Below are positions 5,244 to 49,361 of a DNA stretch of 64,000 nucleotides, piece by piece. The stretch comes from Candidatus Doudnabacteria bacterium RIFCSPHIGHO2_12_FULL_48_16 (lineage in GTDB: Bacteria > Patescibacteriota > Doudnabacteria > UBA920 > O2-02-FULL-48-8). Both the position numbers and the translations under genes were made by a program. The notes under the pieces are model-generated. The model was given only the letters and a program-made list of their open reading frames with translations. It made no database searches and was not told where the DNA came from. The stretch spans positions 10,399 to 74,398 of the forward strand of contig MFEY01000004.1 of assembly GCA_001780035.1 (NCBI GenBank), read 5' to 3'. How positions within the stretch are numbered: the first letter of the stretch is position 1; the number at the start of each line of letters is the position of its first letter.

Positions 5244-5267
5244 CCCGGCCTCTCGCGAAAGGCGGGG
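5244..5267. terminator. Hairpin CCCGGCCTCTCGCGAAAGGCGGGG, a CGCGAG-loop terminator family
   Basis: Near-identical to the hairpin at 11678 and related to the one at 37846. Confidence 0.5.
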
Positions 5268-11677: not shown

Positions 11678-11702
11678 CCCCCGCCTCTCGCGAGAGGCGG
11701 GG
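11678..11702. terminator. Bidirectional terminator CCCCGCCTCTCGCGAGAGGCGGGG between convergent genes
   Basis: Perfect hairpin. Confidence 0.6.
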
Positions 11703-12338: not shown

Positions 12339-12468
12339 AAATTTCCTTTCTCCCTCCATTCATTGAATCGAAGCATTGCCAGTGAGGTTACAAACTTTAA
12401 GGGTAAAACAAACAAAAAAATAAGCCCTTTCGGCTCTAACTAATAAAGACGAAAAAAATAATTTTTTG

Positions 12469-13728
12469 TTACAGCCAACTTTCTGACTGGCGCACCAGCA
12501 GCTGTGGTGCCAGGTTGGGCTCTAGCATAATTTCTTTGACAATTTTTTCCATGCGCGCGGCTTGAGAACCTTTGACCAAGATAGTATCGCCGGGAAGCAA
12601 GGCTGATCGGACCGAGATTTTGGCGGAATCAGAAGTGGCGAACCATTGAGCGCGGCCGCTAAATTTTCGCGCCTGCAATCCCTCCCGGATAATTTTGGCT
12701 TCCTCCCCGACCAAATAAACCAGCCCAATGGCGCTTTCCACAATTTTGGCCGCGACATCAATATGGCCGCTGCGAGTTTGGGCTCCGAGCTCAGTCATTG
12801 AGCCCAAAACTGCAATTTTTCGCCCTAATGCCAGATTATTCAAAGTATCAAGAGCCGCAATTGTGGAAGCGGGGGCGGCATTATAAGTGTCGTCGATAAT
12901 TGCCGTCTGCCTGATACCGGCAATTAAGCGCTGCCGGCCTTGCGACGGCTCGTAGGATTTAAGCGCTTCCGAGGCTTCGACTAAATTTATATCAAACTGC
13001 AATCCGACGGCGACGGCGGCCAGAGCTGCATACACCGCGGGCTTGCCCAGCGAGTTCGGCAAAAAAAACGGAAGAACAGTTCCTTCATAGTGAACCTTAA
13101 AATTCGAACCCCAGGTTCCCTCTACTTGCATCAAGCGGAAATCAGAAGCTTTGATTTGGGCTTCTCGAGCAAACCCAAAGCTGACCACTTTTGCTTTGGT
13201 CTGAATCCGGCCTTCCTGCACCTTCGGGCTGTCAAAATTTAGAACGGCCGCGGCCTCGAGTGGAAGTTTTTTGATCAAACTCAGTTTTTCCCGGGCCAGC
13301 TCCGATTGATCGGTAAAAAACTGCAGGTGTGAAATTCCGATATCGGTAACCACGGCCACGTCGACCTTGCCCAAAATCTTCATCAAATACGCGATATTGC
13401 CGGGGCGATCCACGCCCAGCTCCAGAACCAAAACTTGCGGATAATCGGCGTGAGCCAATTTCGCAATGCTCTTGAGAAAAATCCAGGCCCAACGCAACAA
13501 GTTGCGCCCGCCGGTCTGTTCGCCGGCAATCGTCAACGGCAGTCCGATTTCGTTGTTGTAATTCCCCCGGCTTTGGCGCACCGAATATTTGGTCTGCAAG
13601 ACGCGCAAACAGGCTTCCTTGGTGGAAGTTTTGCCGACGCTGCCGGTGATCGCCACGATCTTCGGATGATACCGCCAGAGAAACAGTTTTGCCAGGATGG
13701 CCAGATTTTTTTCCAAAAGTGTGCGCAT
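12469..13728 (-). CDS. murF: UDP-MurNAc-tripeptide--D-Ala-D-Ala ligase
   Basis: ITGSVGKTSTKE P-loop, GNYNNEIGLP. Confidence 0.85.
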   Translation of the reverse strand: MRTLLEKNLAILAKLFLWRYHPKIVAITGSVGKTSTKEACLRVLQTKYSVRQSRGNYNNEIGLPLTIAGEQTGGRNLLRWAWIFLKSIAKLAHADYPQVLVLELGVDRPGNIAYLMKILGKVDVAVVTDIGISHLQFFTDQSELAREKLSLIKKLPLEAAAVLNFDSPKVQEGRIQTKAKVVSFGFAREAQIKASDFRLMQVEGTWGSNFKVHYEGTVLPFFLPNSLGKPAVYAALAAVAVGLQFDINLVEASEALKSYEPSQGRQRLIAGIRQTAIIDDTYNAAPASTIAALDTLNNLALGRKIAVLGSMTELGAQTRSGHIDVAAKIVESAIGLVYLVGEEAKIIREGLQARKFSGRAQWFATSDSAKISVRSALLPGDTILVKGSQAARMEKIVKEIMLEPNLAPQLLVRQSESWL

Positions 13729-30592: not shown

Positions 30593-32092
30593 TCAGATGG
30601 CGAACAGGCGTTCGGCGATCCCGAAGTGGATGCCGACGTCGTCCCTCACCGTCAGCCGGTTACCCTGAGGATCTTCGCCGGTGCCGCACGGAATCGTGCG
30701 GACCTTACCATCGGCGAACATGCGGTAGAGCTTGTCGCGCAGCGCGTCAGCGACCTGGCCCCGGTTCTCTCCCGGCTTGACGGTCGCGTTGCCGATCAGA
30801 TACGCGACACGCGTGCCATCCGAGATGAAGGTCCCATCCTTGTAGCCCATCCCCGCCGGCAGCAGGGTCACGTTGTTCTTCTTGAGCCCCTTGAGATCAA
30901 GCATCATCGGCTCGCCCGGCTTGTGGCGCCAAGGGTAGCCTTTGTATTCCCCGCCCGGGCCGGGACCGGTGACGAGCGCGATAGTCATCGCGATCTGGTC
31001 ATCCCTCACATCCGGCTTGACCTCGTCGAGGTGCCCTTCGAACATCGCCATGATCAGCTGGCCGAAGTTGCGCACGAGGCGCAGCATGACCTGGAACTCC
31101 GGTTCGGGCGGCCGAATGTTGATCTCGCAGACGCGAATCGACGCCGGCTTGCCGAACTCGTTGAAGAACACCATGCATCCCGGATACAGGATGCAGGGCC
31201 GCAGGATGCCGCGGCGCCTCATCTCCTCGATCAACGGCCGGAAAACTTGCTTTACCGCCATCTCGAGCAGTTCCTGAGAATGCACGGGGTGCGGCCCCAG
31301 GCTCGCCATGCCACCGGTCACCGGATTGTTCCGGCTGATCTGACCGGCGAACCGGCCCTGGTAGTCCATGGCCGTGGGCAGGATCTGGAAGTTGCCGTGC
31401 ACGTCGACGAGGGCAGTGAAGCTGACCTCGATTCCCGCCATGTAGGACTCCATGAGCAGGGGCCAGGGAAGACCCGGCCCAAGCAACTTCCTGTAGGACT
31501 CGGCGTAATCTGCCATCAGCGTCTCGTAGACTTCGCGGATCTCCCACGGGCTGCCGATGAACCGCGCGCCTTTGCCCGCCGCCTGGAACGGATACTTCGC
31601 ATAGGCGCCGCCGTGCTGTTCCAGGTATCGCAGACACGCTCTGAGAAACGGCTGGTAATGCCTGGCTTCGATCGCAACCCAGTCGGGAGCCACCGGCACC
31701 CGCGCCGAAGCGCAGAGTTGTTTGCATGTTACCTTGTCGCCCTCGATGAATGAAGCCGCCGCGGTCAGGCCGGCGACCCGGTCCCCGAACCCCGCTTCGG
31801 TCATCCGATCCACGAAGCCGTCGATCTGCAGGGCTTCCGGCATCGGCACCACGTAGTCGATTTCGTCGTCTGACAGCGCGCGCAGCACACGCGCGGCGTA
31901 ATCCTGCACCGAGGAACCTCCCGGCACCTCGAGGAAATCAACTGGCCAGCCAGCCAGTTCGGCATAGGGCTTCATTGCGGGCATGCCACGAATCACCACT
32001 CCCTGGAACTCGCCTTTCTCGCCGCTACGGCTGACAGTCAGTGCCGAAAGAAACGTGCGGGCGTCAGAGCCTGCAAATCCGATTCGCTTCAT
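30593..32092 (-). CDS. ATP-grasp ligase of the PurD (phosphoribosylamine--glycine ligase) family, with a long N-terminal extension
   Basis: CEINIRPPEPEFQVMLRL aligns with PurD EFNCRFGDPETQPIMLRM; AAGKGARF aligns with AAGKGVIV. High GC. Confidence 0.6.
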   Translation of the reverse strand: MKRIGFAGSDARTFLSALTVSRSGEKGEFQGVVIRGMPAMKPYAELAGWPVDFLEVPGGSSVQDYAARVLRALSDDEIDYVVPMPEALQIDGFVDRMTEAGFGDRVAGLTAAASFIEGDKVTCKQLCASARVPVAPDWVAIEARHYQPFLRACLRYLEQHGGAYAKYPFQAAGKGARFIGSPWEIREVYETLMADYAESYRKLLGPGLPWPLLMESYMAGIEVSFTALVDVHGNFQILPTAMDYQGRFAGQISRNNPVTGGMASLGPHPVHSQELLEMAVKQVFRPLIEEMRRRGILRPCILYPGCMVFFNEFGKPASIRVCEINIRPPEPEFQVMLRLVRNFGQLIMAMFEGHLDEVKPDVRDDQIAMTIALVTGPGPGGEYKGYPWRHKPGEPMMLDLKGLKKNNVTLLPAGMGYKDGTFISDGTRVAYLIGNATVKPGENRGQVADALRDKLYRMFADGKVRTIPCGTGEDPQGNRLTVRDDVGIHFGIAERLFAI

Positions 32093-32136
32093 GGGTCCAC
32101 TCTCCTTCTAAAAATCCCCCTGCAACTTGATTTCAT

Positions 32137-32173
32137 AGCTTATCACTTTGTCCGCGCTTGGGCAAATAAAAAA
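32137..32173 (-). promoter_or_regulatory. Duplicated promoter-like module TAGCTTATCACTTTGTCCGCGCTTGGGCAAATAAAAA, copy 1, upstream of the purD-like gene
   Basis: Identical 37-mer at 33000-33036. The minus strand gives TTGCCC-N17-TAAGCT. Confidence 0.5.
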
Positions 32174-32228
32174 CGTCAACGGAAGCCTCCCAACTTCCGC
32201 TGACGTATCGTGAGAAAACAGGCCTCGT

Positions 32229-32963
32229 CTACCCCTTCGGGAAGATATGCCGGGCGCAGCGCTTGATCTGGTCGAGTAGCGCCGCTTCGTGGGGGAGAAC
32301 CAGATCGTCGTCGAACTTGATCTCCTGCACGCGGTTCTCCGAGAATGCCCGAAGGGTTCTGATCTGCACCTCGTGCTCGAACGGCAGGAGGCGCGCGGCC
32401 AGAGTCTCGGGATCATCGGTCTTGATCTCGATCGAGGATCGGGCGTAGTCGAGCACCGCGCCCTCGTCGAATTCCACCGTGACCCGCTGAGCCACGGCTT
32501 CGGTCCAGAAGTTGCGCTGCATCTCGCGCACGAATGCCAAGCGCGCGCAATGGGTCTGCCGGCCGTGCAGCTTGCCGAAGTCAGGCCGGCCGGGACGGAT
32601 CGGGCCGGCGTGCTGATTGACTGCCATGCCCGCAAACGCTTCGATGAGATTGGCTGGCGTCCTGGGGATCCAGCCATACTGGCCCCAAAAATCAGCGCCA
32701 CACCGCCGCGTGATCCGCAACAGTTCTTCGCCGTAGGCTTCGGGCGAGGAGAATTCCGACTTCTTGACCACGAAGATGTCCCTGCCCATCTCGAGCCCAT
32801 GCGCCTCGGCCTTCATGATCGCGCCGATCCCGTCCGTGCTCGCGATCACGCACGCCGGTTCAACGTAAGGCAGACGGCTATCCTTAGTTGCCTGCAGGAT
32901 CTGGTTCATGGTCGTGCCGCCGCCGGATACCGCGAGCGCCACCCGTAACTTATTTCCTCTCAC
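32229..32963 (-). CDS. Formyltransferase of the PurN/Fmt family (PurN-like)
   Basis: VALAVSGGGTT N-terminus, NQHAGPI (N-x-H-x-x-LP-type) and downstream H and D. Probable GTG start after AAGGGGGA. Confidence 0.55.
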   Translation of the reverse strand: MRGNKLRVALAVSGGGTTMNQILQATKDSRLPYVEPACVIASTDGIGAIMKAEAHGLEMGRDIFVVKKSEFSSPEAYGEELLRITRRCGADFWGQYGWIPRTPANLIEAFAGMAVNQHAGPIRPGRPDFGKLHGRQTHCARLAFVREMQRNFWTEAVAQRVTVEFDEGAVLDYARSSIEIKTDDPETLAARLLPFEHEVQIRTLRAFSENRVQEIKFDDDLVLPHEAALLDQIKRCARHIFPKG

Positions 32964-32999
32964 ACGTCCCCCTTTGAGAATAATAAAAAGGACTTCCAG

Positions 33000-33036
33000 A
33001 TAGCTTATCACTTTGTCCGCGCTTGGGCAAATAAAA
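33000..33036 (-). promoter_or_regulatory. Duplicated promoter-like module, copy 2, upstream of the purN-like gene
   Basis: See copy 1. Confidence 0.5.
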
Positions 33037-35295: not shown

Positions 35296-35384
35296 TTAAT
35301 AAGACGTGTTTGCTTGCGCTTTGTTTCAAAATGGAACAATATTGAAACTTTTGCCGATTTTTGTTATAGTATCCAAGCAGTTTG

Positions 35385-35459
35385 GCCCAGATAGCTCAGC
35401 TGGTAGAGCAGCTCCATGGTAAGGAGCAGGTCAGCGGTTCAAATCCGCTTCTGGGCTCC
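35385..35459 (+). tRNA. tRNA-Thr (anticodon GGT)
   Basis: Hand-folded cloverleaf; anticodon loop ATGGTAA, T-loop GGTTCAAATCC, encoded CCA. Confidence 0.75.
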
Positions 35460-35503
35460 AGAAACGCCTGACGTTTCCAGAGAATTAATTCTAGCAATAA
35501 TAT

Positions 35504-35659
35504 ATGTCTCAGGACAGCCGAATCTCGATGGAGTGCACTATTTGCCACCATGTCAATTATGATTCCCGCAAGAACAAAAAATTGACCCCGAACCGCTTGG
35601 TAATCGAAAAATTCTGCAAGTGGTGCAAGAAACACACTCAACACAAAGAAACTAAGTGA
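35504..35659 (+). CDS. rpmG: Ribosomal protein L33
   Basis: Hand translation MSQDSRISMECTICHHVNYDSRKNKKLTPNRLVIEKFCKWCKKHTQHKETK shows the C-x-x-C...C-x-x-C zinc ribbon and a KKHTQHKE tail. Missed by the ORF track because it is under 60 aa. Confidence 0.7.
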   Translation: MSQDSRISMECTICHHVNYDSRKNKKLTPNRLVIEKFCKWCKKHTQHKETK

Positions 35660-35678
35660 TTAGTTTCTTTTCGGATAC

Positions 35679-35752
35679 GGGGGCGTGGTGAAGTGGTATC
35701 ACAAGGGTCTCCAAAACCTTTGTCGGGGGTTCGATTCCCTCCGCCCCTGCCA
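35679..35752 (+). tRNA. tRNA-Trp (anticodon CCA)
   Basis: Anticodon loop CTCCAAA, T-loop GGTTCGATTCC, encoded CCA. Confidence 0.75.
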
Positions 35753-36073
35753 ATAAAAATTCTATCGAGTTACCGAGAAGGCTTAGATAATATTCGAGAC
35801 CAAAAACACAGCTTATGCGACTCGTGTTTTTTGTTTGTACTATTTACGCAATCAGTCTGACGGCTTTTTCCTTGAAAGCCAGTCTTGATTTTAGACAACT
35901 GAGGATGTTGCATTTCTCGACGCTACTGCCATGTTGGAGCACGTACTTGGTGTAGTTTTTCAGTTCAACATCCTTGACCTGGATTTTGTCTTTATTGTTC
36001 GAGCTTCGCAGAAAATCATTAAAATGCTAAAATATTAGTAAATGATTAACTTTTGGAAATAGAATAATAAAAT

Positions 36074-37468
36074 ATGTGGCACTTCACGAAAATGCTACGT
36101 GCGTCGTCGTTTACCTTTGGCACATACACAGTTGATGCCGCTCGCTCAACAATCACCTTTACATACCGTGTGGAATTTCAAAGCGGGAGAATAAGGACGT
36201 ATACTGATCGTCTCTTTTTTGAAGGCGTATCACCAGAATTGTGGGAGAAGGTACCCAAAGCCGTGTTAGAGGCGACACTCCAGGCACTGCTCCTTATGAT
36301 CGGCATCAACTACTGGTGTGTCCTCCCGACTAACAATATTCGTATTGAAGGGTTTACGCTTACGCGTGAGCAGGCCCGCTTCTGGGACTCGCTCTATTTA
36401 AATGGACTTGGCGAATTTTTCTATTTCAATAAGATCGATTTCCATAATCTTATTTCTTTTCCGTACGACGATTCCGCTACCGTGCCTAGGGCCGCCCGAT
36501 TCGAACCACCCAAGCGAGCGCTTCTCTTGAACGGAGCGGGTAAAGATTCCATCCTTTCGGCCGAAATGTTGAAAGCGTCAGGTACGCCATTTGATTTTTT
36601 CGCTTTTGCCCCGACACCTGCGCACAAACGTATTGCTGCGCTCGTCGGTGCTAAAACTATAACTGTCAAGCGTCGTCGCGACTCACAACTCGGATGGATC
36701 ACTCTATTCCTTGGAATATCGAGTGCATACCCGTCGGTCTCCACGTTTACGTTCATAGCCACACTGCTCGCTGAACTTCTCGGCTACAACTCGATCATCT
36801 TTTCCAACGAACGCAGCGCTGATTTCGGCAATCTCACCTACCTCGGCTTGCCGGTGAATCATCAATGGTGCAAATCATCCGAGGCAGAAAAGTTGACCAA
36901 CGATTACATACAATCCTTTATAACACCCGACATTTCGATGCGCTCGCTCTTGCGGCAATATAGCGAACTGGAGATTGTGCGGCGTTTCGTGCGCTATCCG
37001 CAGTATCTCTACAACTTTACGAGTTGTAACACCTATTTTTGGCTTCCTCGTATCCAGCAACTCCTGTTACGCACAAATTACTGGTGCAATTCATGTCCGA
37101 AATGCGTATTCCTCTTTGCCTGCTTCTCGGCATTTCTGCCAAAAAAAGAAATGATTAATATCTTCGGTGCCGATCTCTATGCTAAAAAGCACCTCCTGCC
37201 TCTGTTCAGGCGCATCCTTGGCATTGAAGGATTTAAGCCGTTTGATTGTGTTGGTGAACCTGAAGAAATGATTCTCGCTATGCATTATGCGGCACAATGC
37301 AAGGAATATTCCGGTGAACCGGCGATGCGGCTTTTTGAAGAATATTTTCCGCCAGACTACAATTTTGATGAGCTCGCGCGGAGGGTCTTCGCCGATGACC
37401 ATGATGAGATAATGGAGACACGACCTGATCTGTACCCCGAAGTAGTGTCTCATTTGTCCCATTTGTAA
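36074..37468 (+). CDS. PP-loop ATP pyrophosphatase superfamily protein with a QueC-like core and unique N- and C-terminal extensions
   Basis: LLLNGAGKDS (SGGxDS-like) at about residue 155; SCNTY...CNSCPKC Zn motif resembling QueC SCY...CGKCDSC. Codon usage differs from neighbouring genes. Confidence 0.5.
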   Translation: MWHFTKMLRASSFTFGTYTVDAARSTITFTYRVEFQSGRIRTYTDRLFFEGVSPELWEKVPKAVLEATLQALLLMIGINYWCVLPTNNIRIEGFTLTREQARFWDSLYLNGLGEFFYFNKIDFHNLISFPYDDSATVPRAARFEPPKRALLLNGAGKDSILSAEMLKASGTPFDFFAFAPTPAHKRIAALVGAKTITVKRRRDSQLGWITLFLGISSAYPSVSTFTFIATLLAELLGYNSIIFSNERSADFGNLTYLGLPVNHQWCKSSEAEKLTNDYIQSFITPDISMRSLLRQYSELEIVRRFVRYPQYLYNFTSCNTYFWLPRIQQLLLRTNYWCNSCPKCVFLFACFSAFLPKKEMINIFGADLYAKKHLLPLFRRILGIEGFKPFDCVGEPEEMILAMHYAAQCKEYSGEPAMRLFEEYFPPDYNFDELARRVFADDHDEIMETRPDLYPEVVSHLSHL

Positions 37469-37873
37469 AATTCTCGCCTTAACCATGAGAGCCAAAAAAT
37501 CAAAATAAGACAGCGGTTTGTTACTGTCTCACAGCCAAATGCAACATATCCTAAACCCCGGTTTTAACGTTGCATTTGAACAGCCTGATGAAGTATCTAA
37601 TAATGCCTATTTTGGAACACGGCACGCGGGCTTAAGGCGTGTTCCAAATGTTCCAAAATCCATCTTGGAGTGCAAATCACCAATACTATAGACTGTCCCA
37701 AACTGTCCCATTTTGCTAAAACCAACGCCTACCGAGAGCCATTAATCAACAAGGGAAGGGTTATACCAAAACCTCTTTGAAAATGTTATCATGGGTAAGT
37801 AAGATCGACTTGTTCTGCCAAATGCTTTGAATAAAGTGTCTCCCCCCCGCCGTTCGCGAGCGGCGGGGTCTAA

Positions 37874-37901
37874 AACCGTTCGCGTAGGTCCGATTCCTAC
37901 A
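37874..37901 (+). repeat. tRNA 3'-half-like remnant GTAGGtccgattCCTACatcccccgCCA, a degenerate copy of the tRNA-Trp T-arm and acceptor end
   Basis: About 70% identical to the tRNA-Trp 3' 32 nt, with compensatory stem changes. Confidence 0.4.
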
Positions 37902-37907
37902 TCCCCC

Positions 37908-37932
37908 GCCAAAAAATCACCTGTTCAAGCAG
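37908..37932. terminator. Bidirectional terminator CACCTGttcaagCAGGTG with T-runs on both strands
   Basis: Hairpin plus TTTTTT. Confidence 0.6.
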
Positions 37933-37973
37933 GTGGTTTTTTGATTATAGCCGGCTCAGACGTATGGTTTTGG

Positions 37974-38696
37974 TCATTTGGCCACGGGCAGCGTGAAATA
38001 AAATGTTGTGCCTTTGTTTTCTTCGGACTTAAACCAGATCCGGCCGCCGGAGGCTTCGATAAAAATCTTGGAGATAAACAACCCGAGGCCCGTGCCGGTC
38101 GTTTCAAGAGTCAGCACATTGGTCCCCCGAAAAAAGCGGTTGAATATCTGGCTTTGCTGCTCTTTCGGAATCCCGACTCCGGTATCGGCAATCGAAACCA
38201 GGGCAAACTCCCCGTCCCGGCCGAGGTTAACCGCGATCCGGCCGCCGTCCGGGGTAAAGGCAATGGCATTGGAAATCAGGTTGTTGACCGCTTGCTTGAT
38301 CTTATTCGGTTCGGTGCGCACTAGCGGGAACGGTTCCTGCTCGATCGTAAAACTGACCTGAAGTTTTTTCTTTTTAATTTCTTTTTCTTTTTCCTTAACC
38401 ATGCTCTGGACAATGTCGGTTAAATCCGTCGCTTGCAGATAAAGCTTAGTTTGGCCCTGCTCAATCCGAGAAACTTCCAGCAAATCATTGACCAGGGCGA
38501 TCATGCGCTCGTTAGAGCTGTTAATCTTCTCGATAAAATCTTTTTGCTTTTTGTTGAGATTGCCAGTATCGGATTTTTGCAGTAATTCCAATAACCACTT
38601 AATTCCCGACAACGGCGTGCGCAACTGGTGGGAAGTTAAATTTACGAAATCCGATTGAACCTTGCTTAGCGAATTCTTTTTCTTTTTTTCGGCCAT
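37974..38696 (-). CDS. Soluble histidine kinase (HisKA plus HATPase_c)
   Basis: H-box LTSHQLRTPLSGI; N, G1 and G2 boxes. Confidence 0.8.
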   Translation of the reverse strand: MAEKKKKNSLSKVQSDFVNLTSHQLRTPLSGIKWLLELLQKSDTGNLNKKQKDFIEKINSSNERMIALVNDLLEVSRIEQGQTKLYLQATDLTDIVQSMVKEKEKEIKKKKLQVSFTIEQEPFPLVRTEPNKIKQAVNNLISNAIAFTPDGGRIAVNLGRDGEFALVSIADTGVGIPKEQQSQIFNRFFRGTNVLTLETTGTGLGLFISKIFIEASGGRIWFKSEENKGTTFYFTLPVAK

Positions 38697-48191: not shown

Positions 48192-49361
48192 CTAGCCCAG
48201 AACGTCGATGTATTTATACATGCCGCCGGTGTTGAAGACGACCACCGTGTCGTCCTGTTTGATCGAACCGGCTTCACGGAGCACGTGCACCGCGTGCATC
48301 GCCGCACCACCCTCAGGTGCCGCATTGATGCCTTCAAAGCGACCGAGGTCGCGCATGCCCTGAACCATGTCCGTGTCCGCGACGGCGACCGCTGCGCCCT
48401 GGCTCTCACGCACGGCGCGCAGAACCAGAAAATCGCCAATGGCCCGAGGCACCCGCAAGCCGTCCGCGATTGTGGTCGCGTTCTCCCACGGCCGGGCCTT
48501 CTCCGTACCTTCATCGAATGCACGCACGATCGGCGCGCAGTTGGCGGCCTGAACCGTGACCATATGCGGCCGCTTGACTGGATCGATCCACCCCATGGCG
48601 CTCATTTCCTCGAACGCCTTCCACATGCCAACCATGCCGGTTCCGCCACCGGTCGGGTAGATGATCCAATCGGGCAAGCGCCAACCGAACTGTTCGGCGA
48701 GTTCGTAGCCCATGATCTTCTTGCCCTCGATGCGATACGGCTCCTTGAGCGTAGAGACGTCATACCAGCCGAGCGGTCCGCCCGTTTCGGCGGCAATCCG
48801 ACCGGCGTCAGTAATGAGTCCATCCACGAGTGTGACCTTGGCGCCGTACAACTCGCATTCGCGGATGAACGGCGTCTTCACGTCGCGCGGCATAAACACC
48901 TGAGCCTCAAGTCCCGCCTTGGCCGCATACGCTGCCATGGCACAGCCGGCGTTGCCGGCCGTGGGGATGGACAGGACCTGGGCGCCGAGATACATGGCCC
49001 GTGTCACAGCCGCGGACAGCCCGCGCGCCTTGAACGAATTGGTCGGGTTCAGTGATTCATCCTTGACGAAAAGTTTCGTGAGACCGAGCTCGCGCCCCAG
49101 CCGTTCGGCGTGAACCAGCGGTGTCCAACCCTCGCCGAGCGACACCGGCGCCTCACCAGGCAGCAGTGGCATCACTTCGCTATACCGCCACATCGATCGC
49201 TCGTCCATGATCATGGCGCTGCGACCCTTTTTGCAGGCGGCATCGAGGTTGTAGCGCACCAGCAACGGCATCCCGCACTCGCAGAGATGGTGCGGTTGTC
49301 GAGGATCGAATGGACCGGCGCCACAAGGCACTGAACATTCCAAATAAAATGACAGTCGCAT
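48192..49361 (-). CDS. thrC: Threonine synthase with N-terminal Zn-ribbon (high-GC gene)
   Basis: FVKDESLNPTNSFKARG PLP-lysine signature; CSVPCG...CECG ribbon. Confidence 0.75.
   Translation of the reverse strand: MRLSFYLECSVPCGAGPFDPRQPHHLCECGMPLLVRYNLDAACKKGRSAMIMDERSMWRYSEVMPLLPGEAPVSLGEGWTPLVHAERLGRELGLTKLFVKDESLNPTNSFKARGLSAAVTRAMYLGAQVLSIPTAGNAGCAMAAYAAKAGLEAQVFMPRDVKTPFIRECELYGAKVTLVDGLITDAGRIAAETGGPLGWYDVSTLKEPYRIEGKKIMGYELAEQFGWRLPDWIIYPTGGGTGMVGMWKAFEEMSAMGWIDPVKRPHMVTVQAANCAPIVRAFDEGTEKARPWENATTIADGLRVPRAIGDFLVLRAVRESQGAAVAVADTDMVQGMRDLGRFEGINAAPEGGAAMHAVHVLREAGSIKQDDTVVVFNTGGMYKYIDVLG

Follow-up and report, generated by a model that had tools for sequence, protein, structure and literature searches.

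Organization of the tRNA-Trp locus

We analysed a 64,000-nt stretch of contig MFEY01000004.1 from Candidatus Doudnabacteria bacterium RIFCSPHIGHO2_12_FULL_48_16 (hereafter the window, whose positions are used below unless another contig is named), in which a tRNA-Trp gene is followed by a gene for a 464-aa protein. An initial annotation had described this protein as a lone QueC-like enzyme carried by an insertion. Our results argue that it is probably MurL, a peptidoglycan-precursor epimerase, and that the gene encoding it is part of a 2.1-kb insertion by which the tRNA-Trp gene was replaced, leaving the 3' half of the old gene behind.

From left to right, the locus starts with a block of three genes on the forward strand, consisting of the native tRNA-Thr(GGU) (35385–35460), rpmG (35504–35659) and the live tRNA-Trp(CCA) (35679–35752), a divergent allele with the sequence GGGGGCGTGGTGAAGTGGTATCAC.... 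Both tRNAs were called by ARAGORN and Rfam, and rpmG was identified by translation as encoding the 51-aa ribosomal protein L33, with 73–92% identity to L33 of related contigs; Pfam Ribosomal_L33 is recorded for its counterpart in L136. The left part of the inserted segment (35753–36073), which resembles none of the loci fetched from other species, contains terminator-like hairpins at 35789–35844 and 35862–35880 and promoter-like sites for murL at 36005–36033 and 36046–36073. The open reading frame (ORF) of murL (36074–37468, forward strand) is followed by the noncoding right part of the segment (37469–37844) and by a GC-rich palindrome, CCCCGCCGTT-CGCG-AGCGGCGGGG, with GTCTCC before it (37845–37868), situated at the break of the old tRNA-Trp. 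A pseudo-tRNA-Trp, which is the partly decayed 3' half of the clade's usual allele from the anticodon loop to the CCA, occupies 37865–37911 on the forward strand. A bidirectional intrinsic terminator, A6-hairpin-T6 (37910–37943), is the original terminator common to tRNA-Trp and the gene of a 240-aa histidine kinase (37974–38696, reverse strand), the native, convergent right-hand neighbour. The kinase has a counterpart with 100% identity in Candidatus Doudnabacteria bacterium RIFCSPLOWO2_02_FULL. Within 10 kb of murL we found rpmG, tRNAs, an ABC transporter, HU, two histidine kinases, a response regulator, EF-Ts and S2.

A displaced tRNA-Trp remnant and empty sites in relatives

Using the kinase as an anchor for comparison, we gathered seven related contigs (L010, L011, L012, L013, L014, L133 and L134) and mapped their tRNAs and neighbouring genes. 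Empty sites occur in L012, L013 and L014, where the kinase stop is followed by the terminator within ~50 nt and then by convergent tRNA-Trp, rpmG and tRNA-Thr, with no murL. These sites support the earlier proposal of a gene inserted next to tRNA-Trp, with a displaced copy of the tRNA 3' end at the far side, and the tRNA calls confirm a tRNA-Trp(CCA) at 35679–35752. Conversely, the expectation that secE-nusG would follow tRNA-Trp did not hold, because other genes follow it in the seven related contigs examined. A strain-level empty site was also considered and discarded, since each of the 24 contigs from the same species as the window has murL at the site.

The largest direct repeat in 35300–38100 (repeat D1) pairs 35710–35757 with 37869–37916, without gaps over 48 nt and with 73% identity. 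Its left copy consists of the last 43 nt of tRNA-Trp and the 5 nt beyond the gene, and nowhere do the two copies agree over more than 7 consecutive nt. The tRNA-like string GTAGGTCCGATTCCTACATCCCCCGCCA, to which attention had already been drawn, belongs to this genuine copy of the tRNA-Trp 3' end, although it lies at 37884–37911 and not at 37874–37901. When local alignment scores were compared with those from 500 shuffles of the downstream region, the remnant scored 20 against the window tRNA-Trp (z = 10; shuffle maximum, 14), the other four window tRNAs scored 8–12 against the remnant region, and the tRNA-Trp of the relatives scored 29–32 (z ~18–19). The remnant is identical to the tRNA-Trp of L012 at 40/48 positions and to that of L133 at 40/49, but to the window's own at just 35/48.

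In its T stem (GTAGG/CCTAC) and in the 3' strand of its anticodon stem, the remnant agrees with the relatives, and after it comes the same CCA-A-run-hairpin-T-run terminator as after their live tRNA-Trp (CCA-A5-hairpin-T6 in the relatives). These sequence features identify the remnant as the 3' half of the tRNA-Trp allele that is usual in the clade, in slight decay and still followed by the original terminator: a gapped alignment shows that two bases of the anticodon have been lost and that the acceptor strand carries three substitutions, and no CCA anticodon is left. The stem differences between the two copies, previously described as compensatory changes, did not evolve in place but are differences between two alleles.

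The live gene was also atypical. The window tRNA-Thr(GGU) is 74/76 identical to those of L010 and L011, and the window tRNA-Trp is 54–61/74 identical to those of L010–L013, L133 and L134 (61/74 to the L133/L134 allele), with differences in the D, anticodon and T stems that are all compensated. The 5' halves of tRNA-Trp in L010, L011, L012, L133 and L134 are identical or one base apart, and the live 5' half in the window differs from the clade's allele at 7/25 positions. Moreover, the two live anticodon-stem strands pair together, whereas the live 5' strand pairs uncleanly with the 3' strand of the remnant, which argues against a classical hybrid attL. These comparisons suggest that the whole tRNA-Trp gene was replaced, and not just its 3' part.

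Origin of the inserted segment

In the scenario that we favour, a segment of ~2.1 kb (~35679–37868), between rpmG and the former tRNA-Trp site, holds murL and a complete tRNA-Trp of another allele, now in service. The old tRNA-Trp was probably broken in the anticodon loop, its 5' half lost and its 3' half and terminator left as a decaying pseudogene beside the histidine-kinase gene, the whole gene being replaced by a DNA segment carrying the other allele together with murL. Only one tRNA-Trp gene was seen in the window, and its loss would presumably be tolerated only if the incoming DNA gave a working copy. Our conjecture is that the tRNA-Trp locus is a recurrent target and that the segment arrived there through break-and-repair or recombination, without the action of an integrase.

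Four observations count against this scenario. The left junction could not be placed from spacer homology, because the spacers differ in every relative; no source of the new tRNA-Trp allele was found, viral contigs included; the 375 nt between murL and the palindrome have no match outside this species; and no nuclease gene or relic was found in the window, which keeps break-and-repair at the level of conjecture.

An alternative that we consider unlikely is that the locus holds the remains of an integrase-borne islet. An element would have entered tRNA-Trp within its 3' half (anticodon loop to CCA), provided a new 3' half in its place and displaced the native one to attR; subsequent loss of the integrase and of nearly all other cargo would have left murL. 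The same-orientation repeat (35710–35757 versus 37869–37916) is exactly the tRNA part that integrases usually duplicate, the displaced copy is the clade's usual allele, relatives have empty sites, and L011 has other cargo (hicAB) at the same site; in adjoining a tRNA gene, with a distal direct repeat of the tRNA 3' part, empty sites and differing cargo, the insertion resembles tRNA-associated islets. However, it differs from them in that no integrase or recombinase domain is encoded within 10 kb, the 73% repeat with its 7-nt longest run provides no exact core, and the native tRNA 5' half was not kept, since the 7/25 differences and the strand pairing point to a whole gene of a different allele. 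Additionally, the cargo is a single, native housekeeping gene of ordinary codon use, and viral contigs contain no related sequence. The former description of the remnant as a displaced att-site copy is supported as to the displaced tRNA-Trp 3' copy, whereas an att site is unlikely, with no integrase within 10 kb and no exact core. The lack of both favours whole-gene replacement.

Far less likely are two readings in which the tRNA-like stretch is no remnant at all: a likeness due to chance, or a working 3' element resembling a tRNA, for example a minihelix with a role in stabilizing or processing the transcript of murL or of the kinase. Chance is excluded by the z values obtained with the window tRNA-Trp and with the relatives' allele, since no shuffle attained the observed score. 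As to a minihelix, 37862–37912 alone can form an acceptor-like stem of 7 bp (GGCGGGG/CCCCGCC) that closes over the intact T arm, with a perfect 5-bp stem and a T-loop-like 7-nt loop; in context, however, the GC palindrome competes for the GGCGGGG strand in a more stable fold. Furthermore, the anticodon-loop part is damaged, with two anticodon bases missing and no CCA anticodon, neither ARAGORN nor Rfam calls a tRNA there, and the stretch is not conserved outside this species.

The tRNA-Trp locus as a hot spot

The seven related contigs and the window show five arrangements of the region. In L011, which otherwise has the layout of the empty-site contigs, genes for a HicA toxin and a HicB/UPF0150-like antitoxin occupy the site between tRNA-Trp and the kinase (L011 6734–8568), together with a 444-aa coiled-coil ORF that has a weak, below-threshold match to SLT transglycosylase. 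The tRNA-Thr/rpmG/tRNA-Trp block is inverted with respect to the kinase in L010 (6894–7389), L133 (11978–12794) and L134 (8781–9145). L133, the closest relative by kinase identity (81%), contains at 12382–12794 a pseudo-tRNA-Trp between rpmG and the live tRNA-Trp; a GIY-YIG gene of 81 aa comes immediately after the pseudogene, ahead of the intact tRNA-Trp. In this pseudogene, 36 nt are identical to the 5' half of the live gene, up to the CTCCAA of the anticodon loop, and are followed by the palindrome CCCCGCCTCTCGCGAGAGGCGGGG and then by CGATTCCTACA; what comes after the palindrome is a T-arm fragment. The arrangement looks like a tandem partial duplication of the tRNA gene around a putative homing nuclease. 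The initial annotation had named the lack of such a remnant in other genomes as a point against its own reading; this sister pseudo-tRNA-Trp shows that relics of the kind are not confined to the genome of the window.

The window and L133 carry the same palindrome family exactly at the same tRNA-Trp break point, and the sequence following the T stem is CCTACA in each of the two relics but CCTACC in the usual live allele. In the window, the palindrome before the remnant is CCCCGCCGTTCGCGAGCGGCGGGG, preceded by GTCTCC. Members of the family (CCCCGCC-KYTCGCGARM-GGCGGGG) are intergenic, with three copies in the window (5246–5265, 11681–11700 and 37847–37866), against 0.04 expected by chance, and one in L133 (12420–12439); the CGCGAG-loop hairpin noted earlier near the remnant is one of the three. 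The family could represent a terminator or a small mobile palindrome.

GIY-YIG nucleases of the free-standing kind, T4 SegB for instance, are known to target regions with tRNA genes, with co-conversion of the markers that flank them (PMC2330249). SegB-like behaviour, together with the GIY-YIG gene of L133, makes a break-and-repair origin plausible. The likeness to SegB-type homing lies in the small GIY-YIG gene between the broken and the live tRNA-Trp of L133; co-conversion of flanks and the favouring of cleavage-resistant alleles would explain whole-allele replacement, whereas the window, with no nuclease gene or recognizable relic, is linked to this system by analogy only. That the clade's tRNA-Trp gene is the target of a homing-like system, with murL carried along by tRNA-allele replacement, is on this analogy a speculative idea that is more probably wrong than right by a wide measure. 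Under it, a small GIY-YIG-type nuclease would break tRNA-Trp in the anticodon loop, and repair would install a resistant allele plus whatever adjoins it, the GC-rich palindrome sealing or marking the break. The essential murL would be carried along, so that a core gene would move by tRNA-allele replacement without an integrase. The whole-allele replacement and the two independent pseudo-tRNA-Trp relics offer a clear, small example of how reduced genomes of the candidate phyla radiation (CPR) reshuffle around a single-copy tRNA gene.

As previously described for the ~440 nt beyond murL, the intervening stretch (37469–37883, ~415 nt) is noncoding and rich in stable hairpins: none of its ORFs exceeds 57 aa, and its predicted folding is more stable than that of shuffled sequences (z = −4.0). 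It has no Rfam match at E ≤ 1, and a structured RNA (tmRNA, RNase P RNA or group I intron) was discarded on finding nothing there with ARAGORN or with Rfam at that threshold. Group I introns occur at position 35/36 of Patescibacteria tRNAs (PMC13011429); an intron in tRNA-Trp was rejected in this case for want of a 5' exon and of a match to any intron model. Likewise, a decayed GIY-YIG gene in 37469–37870 was rejected for lack of residual similarity.

Identification of the 464-aa protein as MurL

Translation of the 464-aa ORF located the motifs on which the initial annotation was based. NGAGKDS (aa 153–159; 36530–36550, forward strand) is a PP-loop-like ATP-binding motif, with a family consensus of GGGKDS, and SCNTY (aa 317–321) and WCNSCPKC (aa 337–344) contribute to a Cys cluster, S317-C318-N319 ... 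W337-C338-x2-C341-x-K343-C344 (37022–37105, forward strand), which is a probable, QueC-like Zn site. The sole NCBIfam match at E ≤ 10 was NF041275, UDP-N-acetyl-alpha-D-muramoyl-L-alanyl-L-glutamate epimerase (E = 6.4e-73, 245.7 bits), with residues 11–435 aligned to model positions 8–422 (415 of the 447 model positions covered). An identical protein, P0001, is annotated with PF26299 (MurL_N) and PF26298 (MurL_epimerase_C), and a member of the 90%-identity cluster, from Candidatus Doudnabacteria bacterium RIFCSPLOWO2_02_FULL, is MurL by UniRef name. On this sequence evidence, the protein is assigned as MurL, a housekeeping enzyme of cell-wall synthesis. The long extensions reported around the PP-loop core do exist (~148 aa before it and ~110 aa after it), but both are conserved MurL domains present throughout the family.

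A word-index search retrieved 1,923 homologues, the best 120 of which are CPR proteins of ~440 aa with 71–86% identity, including among their named hosts Azambacteria, Staskawiczbacteria, Kaiserbacteria, Nomurabacteria and Parcubacteria. The window protein has a species-specific C-terminal tail of ~20 aa (aa 441–464) that these ~440-aa homologues lack, modelled with a predicted local distance difference test score (pLDDT) of ~58–60. In a library clustered at 50% identity, where the MurL family comprises 2,271 clusters, one full-length cluster represents all close CPR homologues and the next relatives are 35–41% identical. Nineteen of the 150 best cluster representatives (P0144, P0155, P0158 and 16 others), from lineages outside the CPR clade, are proteins of 795–914 aa, and all three of those examined are fusions of an N-terminal MurL to a C-terminal MurD ligase. 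Without recourse to annotation, these fusions link the family to the step of peptidoglycan synthesis that involves D-Glu.

In alignment A1, of 60 diverse homologues with 29–74% identity, residues G156-K157-D158, E246, H263-Q264, K267, S317, N319, K343, C392 and E398 are invariant, and all are present in the window protein; C318, C338, C341 and C344 each occur in at least 90% of the sequences, and W337, the remaining residue of the Cys cluster, is likewise conserved to at least that level. The window also encodes RsmH, FtsI, MurF, FtsW and MltG, indicating that the organism makes peptidoglycan.

Other data speak against the assignment. The score of 245.7 bits is far under the 700-bit equivalog cut-off of NF041275, a Xanthomonadales-named model; nevertheless, family members outside CPR, MurL-MurD fusions included, also score just 243–401 bits, indicating that the cut-off defines a narrow clade and not a function. 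Our local Pfam copy, which lacks the PF26299 and PF26298 models, gave zero matches, and the Pfam assignment was taken from precomputed annotations. Lastly, identity to MurL from outside CPR is just 35–41%, and this, with the score under the cut-off, makes the exact substrate of the window protein a putative one.

Predicted fold and chemistry

We modelled the protein with AlphaFold2 on the 60 diverse homologues, obtaining a mean pLDDT of 93.1 and a predicted template modelling score of 0.92; the model was poor just at the first few residues and the last ~25. Foldseek ranked QueC, QatC and TtuA at the top, the model also matched Cap9, nitrile synthetase, argininosuccinate synthetase, LarE and TilS, and the MurL family profile matched the SGGKDS PP-loop motif of TtuA among Protein Data Bank (PDB) sequences. 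The earlier reading of a QueC-like PP-loop fold is thus borne out, and the model places MurL as a predicted QueC-like PP-loop enzyme with a family-specific N-terminal domain (~148 aa) and a helical C-terminal domain. The PDB contains no solved MurL structure. QueC was the best structural match, with 16% identity over the core, and the residue pattern of the Cys cluster parallels that of QueC, on which grounds the conserved four-Cys cluster is probably a structural Zn site as in QueC, with predicted metal binding.

QueC-type enzymes adenylate a carboxylate. Xanthomonas MurL requires ATP and Mg and forms AMP, for which an adenylate intermediate has been proposed, and turns the L-Glu product one way into the D-Glu form; both reviews describe it as having no recognizable domain (PMC5808125, PMC8788868). 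A PP-loop fold provides a structural reason for this AMP-forming chemistry. The GAGKDS loop would bind ATP, and adenylation of the terminal L-Glu at its alpha-carboxylate would acidify the C-alpha proton of this residue enough for inversion; the L-Glu-adding MurD2-type ligase would be encoded elsewhere in the genome. We found no paper linking MurL to a PP-loop fold or reporting MurL in CPR bacteria. The model thus puts MurL firmly with the adenylating PP-loop enzymes of the QueC type, gives it a probable Zn site and points to candidate residues for mutagenesis.

The structural neighbours bear on the original proposal of a standalone or novel-context protein of the QueC, QatC, Cap9 or DpdC type. 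MurL shares with QueC (PDB 3bl5) the PP-loop fold and a C-terminal Cys4 site, with Zn predicted in MurL, but it is just 16–17% identical to QueC, Cap9 (9nto) and QatC (9y02), with no profile-level sequence membership. Relative to these, it adds an N-terminal beta/alpha domain of ~148 aa and a helical C-terminal domain of ~90 aa, and it would act on UDP-muramyl dipeptide, whereas the substrate of QueC-type enzymes is a deazapurine. PADLOC gave no matching family at E ≤ 10, and no QueC-family model of NCBIfam matched at E ≤ 10, where MurL alone did. The suggested search for nearby partner genes of antiphage or deazaguanine type was also negative: within 10 kb there are no genes for Qat (QatA/B/D), CBASS/CD-NTase, Dpd, TGT, que (QueD, QueE) or recombinase proteins. 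Therefore, despite the structural matches to QueC, Cap9 and QatC, the shared PP-loop and Cys cluster and an insertion adjoining a tRNA gene, it is extremely unlikely that a mobile element brought in a stand-alone QueC-family 7-deazaguanine enzyme or a QatC/Cap9/DpdC-type antiphage effector, given the full-length MurL architecture with MurL_N, the fusions of family members to MurD ligases, the empty PADLOC and local Pfam searches, and a conservation of 64–86% in hundreds of CPR genomes and unrelated contexts, a pattern that fits a core enzyme and not a defence gene. An isolated QueC-like protein in an island suggests a novel system of defence or DNA modification; by this assignment it belongs instead to the core of peptidoglycan synthesis, and a false lead is removed. 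The enzyme is already annotated, and the side interest of the case is modest, residing in the MurL fold, its spread in CPR and the tRNA-Trp hot spot.

Partner ligase and pathway

The expected partner of MurL is a MurD-type ligase, fused to it in other lineages and presumably encoded elsewhere here, in agreement with the lack of partner genes beside murL. In the characterized pathway, MurL acts together with an L-Glu-adding MurD2 ligase in a genome devoid of glutamate racemase and D-amino-acid aminotransferase; MurD2 of X. oryzae has Glu and Arg (E197 and R358) where canonical MurD has Asp and Lys (D182 and K348 in E. coli). Hidden Markov model (HMM) and tblastn searches found no MurD or MurD2 in the window, in 10 kb beyond each end or in the fetched loci, and recovered just MurF and MurE-like ligases from the fetched DNA and 10-kb flanks, a further point against the assignment. 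A MurD2/MurL pathway is putatively assigned to this genome from homology and the family-level fusions.

The window protein resembles characterized MurL in its full-length HMM match, two-domain Pfam architecture and complete set of family-invariant residues, in a predicted PP-loop fold that fits the published conversion of ATP to AMP, and in a host with the rest of the peptidoglycan machinery. It differs in scoring below the equivalog cut-off, in being 35–41% identical to members outside CPR, in the extra C-terminal tail and in having no adjoining murD2, whereas in Xanthomonas XOO_1319 and XOO_1320 are neighbours, in keeping with the numbering in PMC8788868. MurL is very widespread and unusually conserved (64–86% identity) across Parcubacteria and Doudnabacteria, and if a MurD2-type ligase were confirmed in CPR genomes, the "alternative" MurD2/MurL route would be their normal path to D-Glu. 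We found no paper stating that this is the case.

Distribution and genomic context of murL

The codon usage of murL, initially thought to be unlike that of its neighbours, is ordinary: the gene has a GC content of 0.477, a third-position GC content (GC3) of 0.523 (window median, 0.58) and a relative synonymous codon usage distance of 6.0, below the window median of 6.5. In the tree, the window MurL falls in a clade with those of L003, L006, L007 and L008 (81–86% identical). Horizontal transfer from Paceibacteria, considered because of named homologues in Azambacteria, Nomurabacteria and Kaiserbacteria, was dropped, since the tree groups the window protein with L003, whose MurL is 84% identical and whose adjoining RluB has named relatives in Doudnabacteria only. 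A phage origin was discarded as well, because viral contigs contain neither a close MurL relative nor a copy of the window tRNA-Trp allele.

The gene is monocistronic, and its neighbours differ in each locus of the close relatives. It is probably not foreign: murL is native to Doudnabacteria and Parcubacteria, where it serves as a housekeeping gene with a strongly conserved sequence but a drifting position. The initial annotation had itself raised the possibility of a housekeeping PP-loop enzyme with conserved synteny; profile searches do give such an enzyme, MurL, but synteny is not conserved.

In only seven of 56 murL loci is a tRNA closer than 1 kb, and partial tRNA repeats are absent from all seven, so the notion that murL is generally flanked by tRNA duplications was rejected; the pseudo-tRNA signature is peculiar to this species among murL loci. 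A tRNA-Asn(GUU) gene lies within 5 kb of murL, on either side and with no repeats, in 11 of the 56 loci (L085, L086, L101, L102, L112, L116, L119, L122, L125, L129 and L130), which may reflect an older conserved neighbourhood in Paceibacteria. Group I introns have been described in Patescibacteria tRNA-Asn genes in a 2026 paper (PMC13011429).

Elsewhere in the window, genes for a GARS-like ATP-grasp protein, a formyltransferase and threonine synthase (30593–33011 and 48192–49361) have a GC content of 0.62–0.63 and a GC3 of 0.74–0.81, as compared with a GC content of ~0.48 in the rest. The GARS-like and formyltransferase genes occupy the same position after HU in L133, indicating that any transfer would be old.

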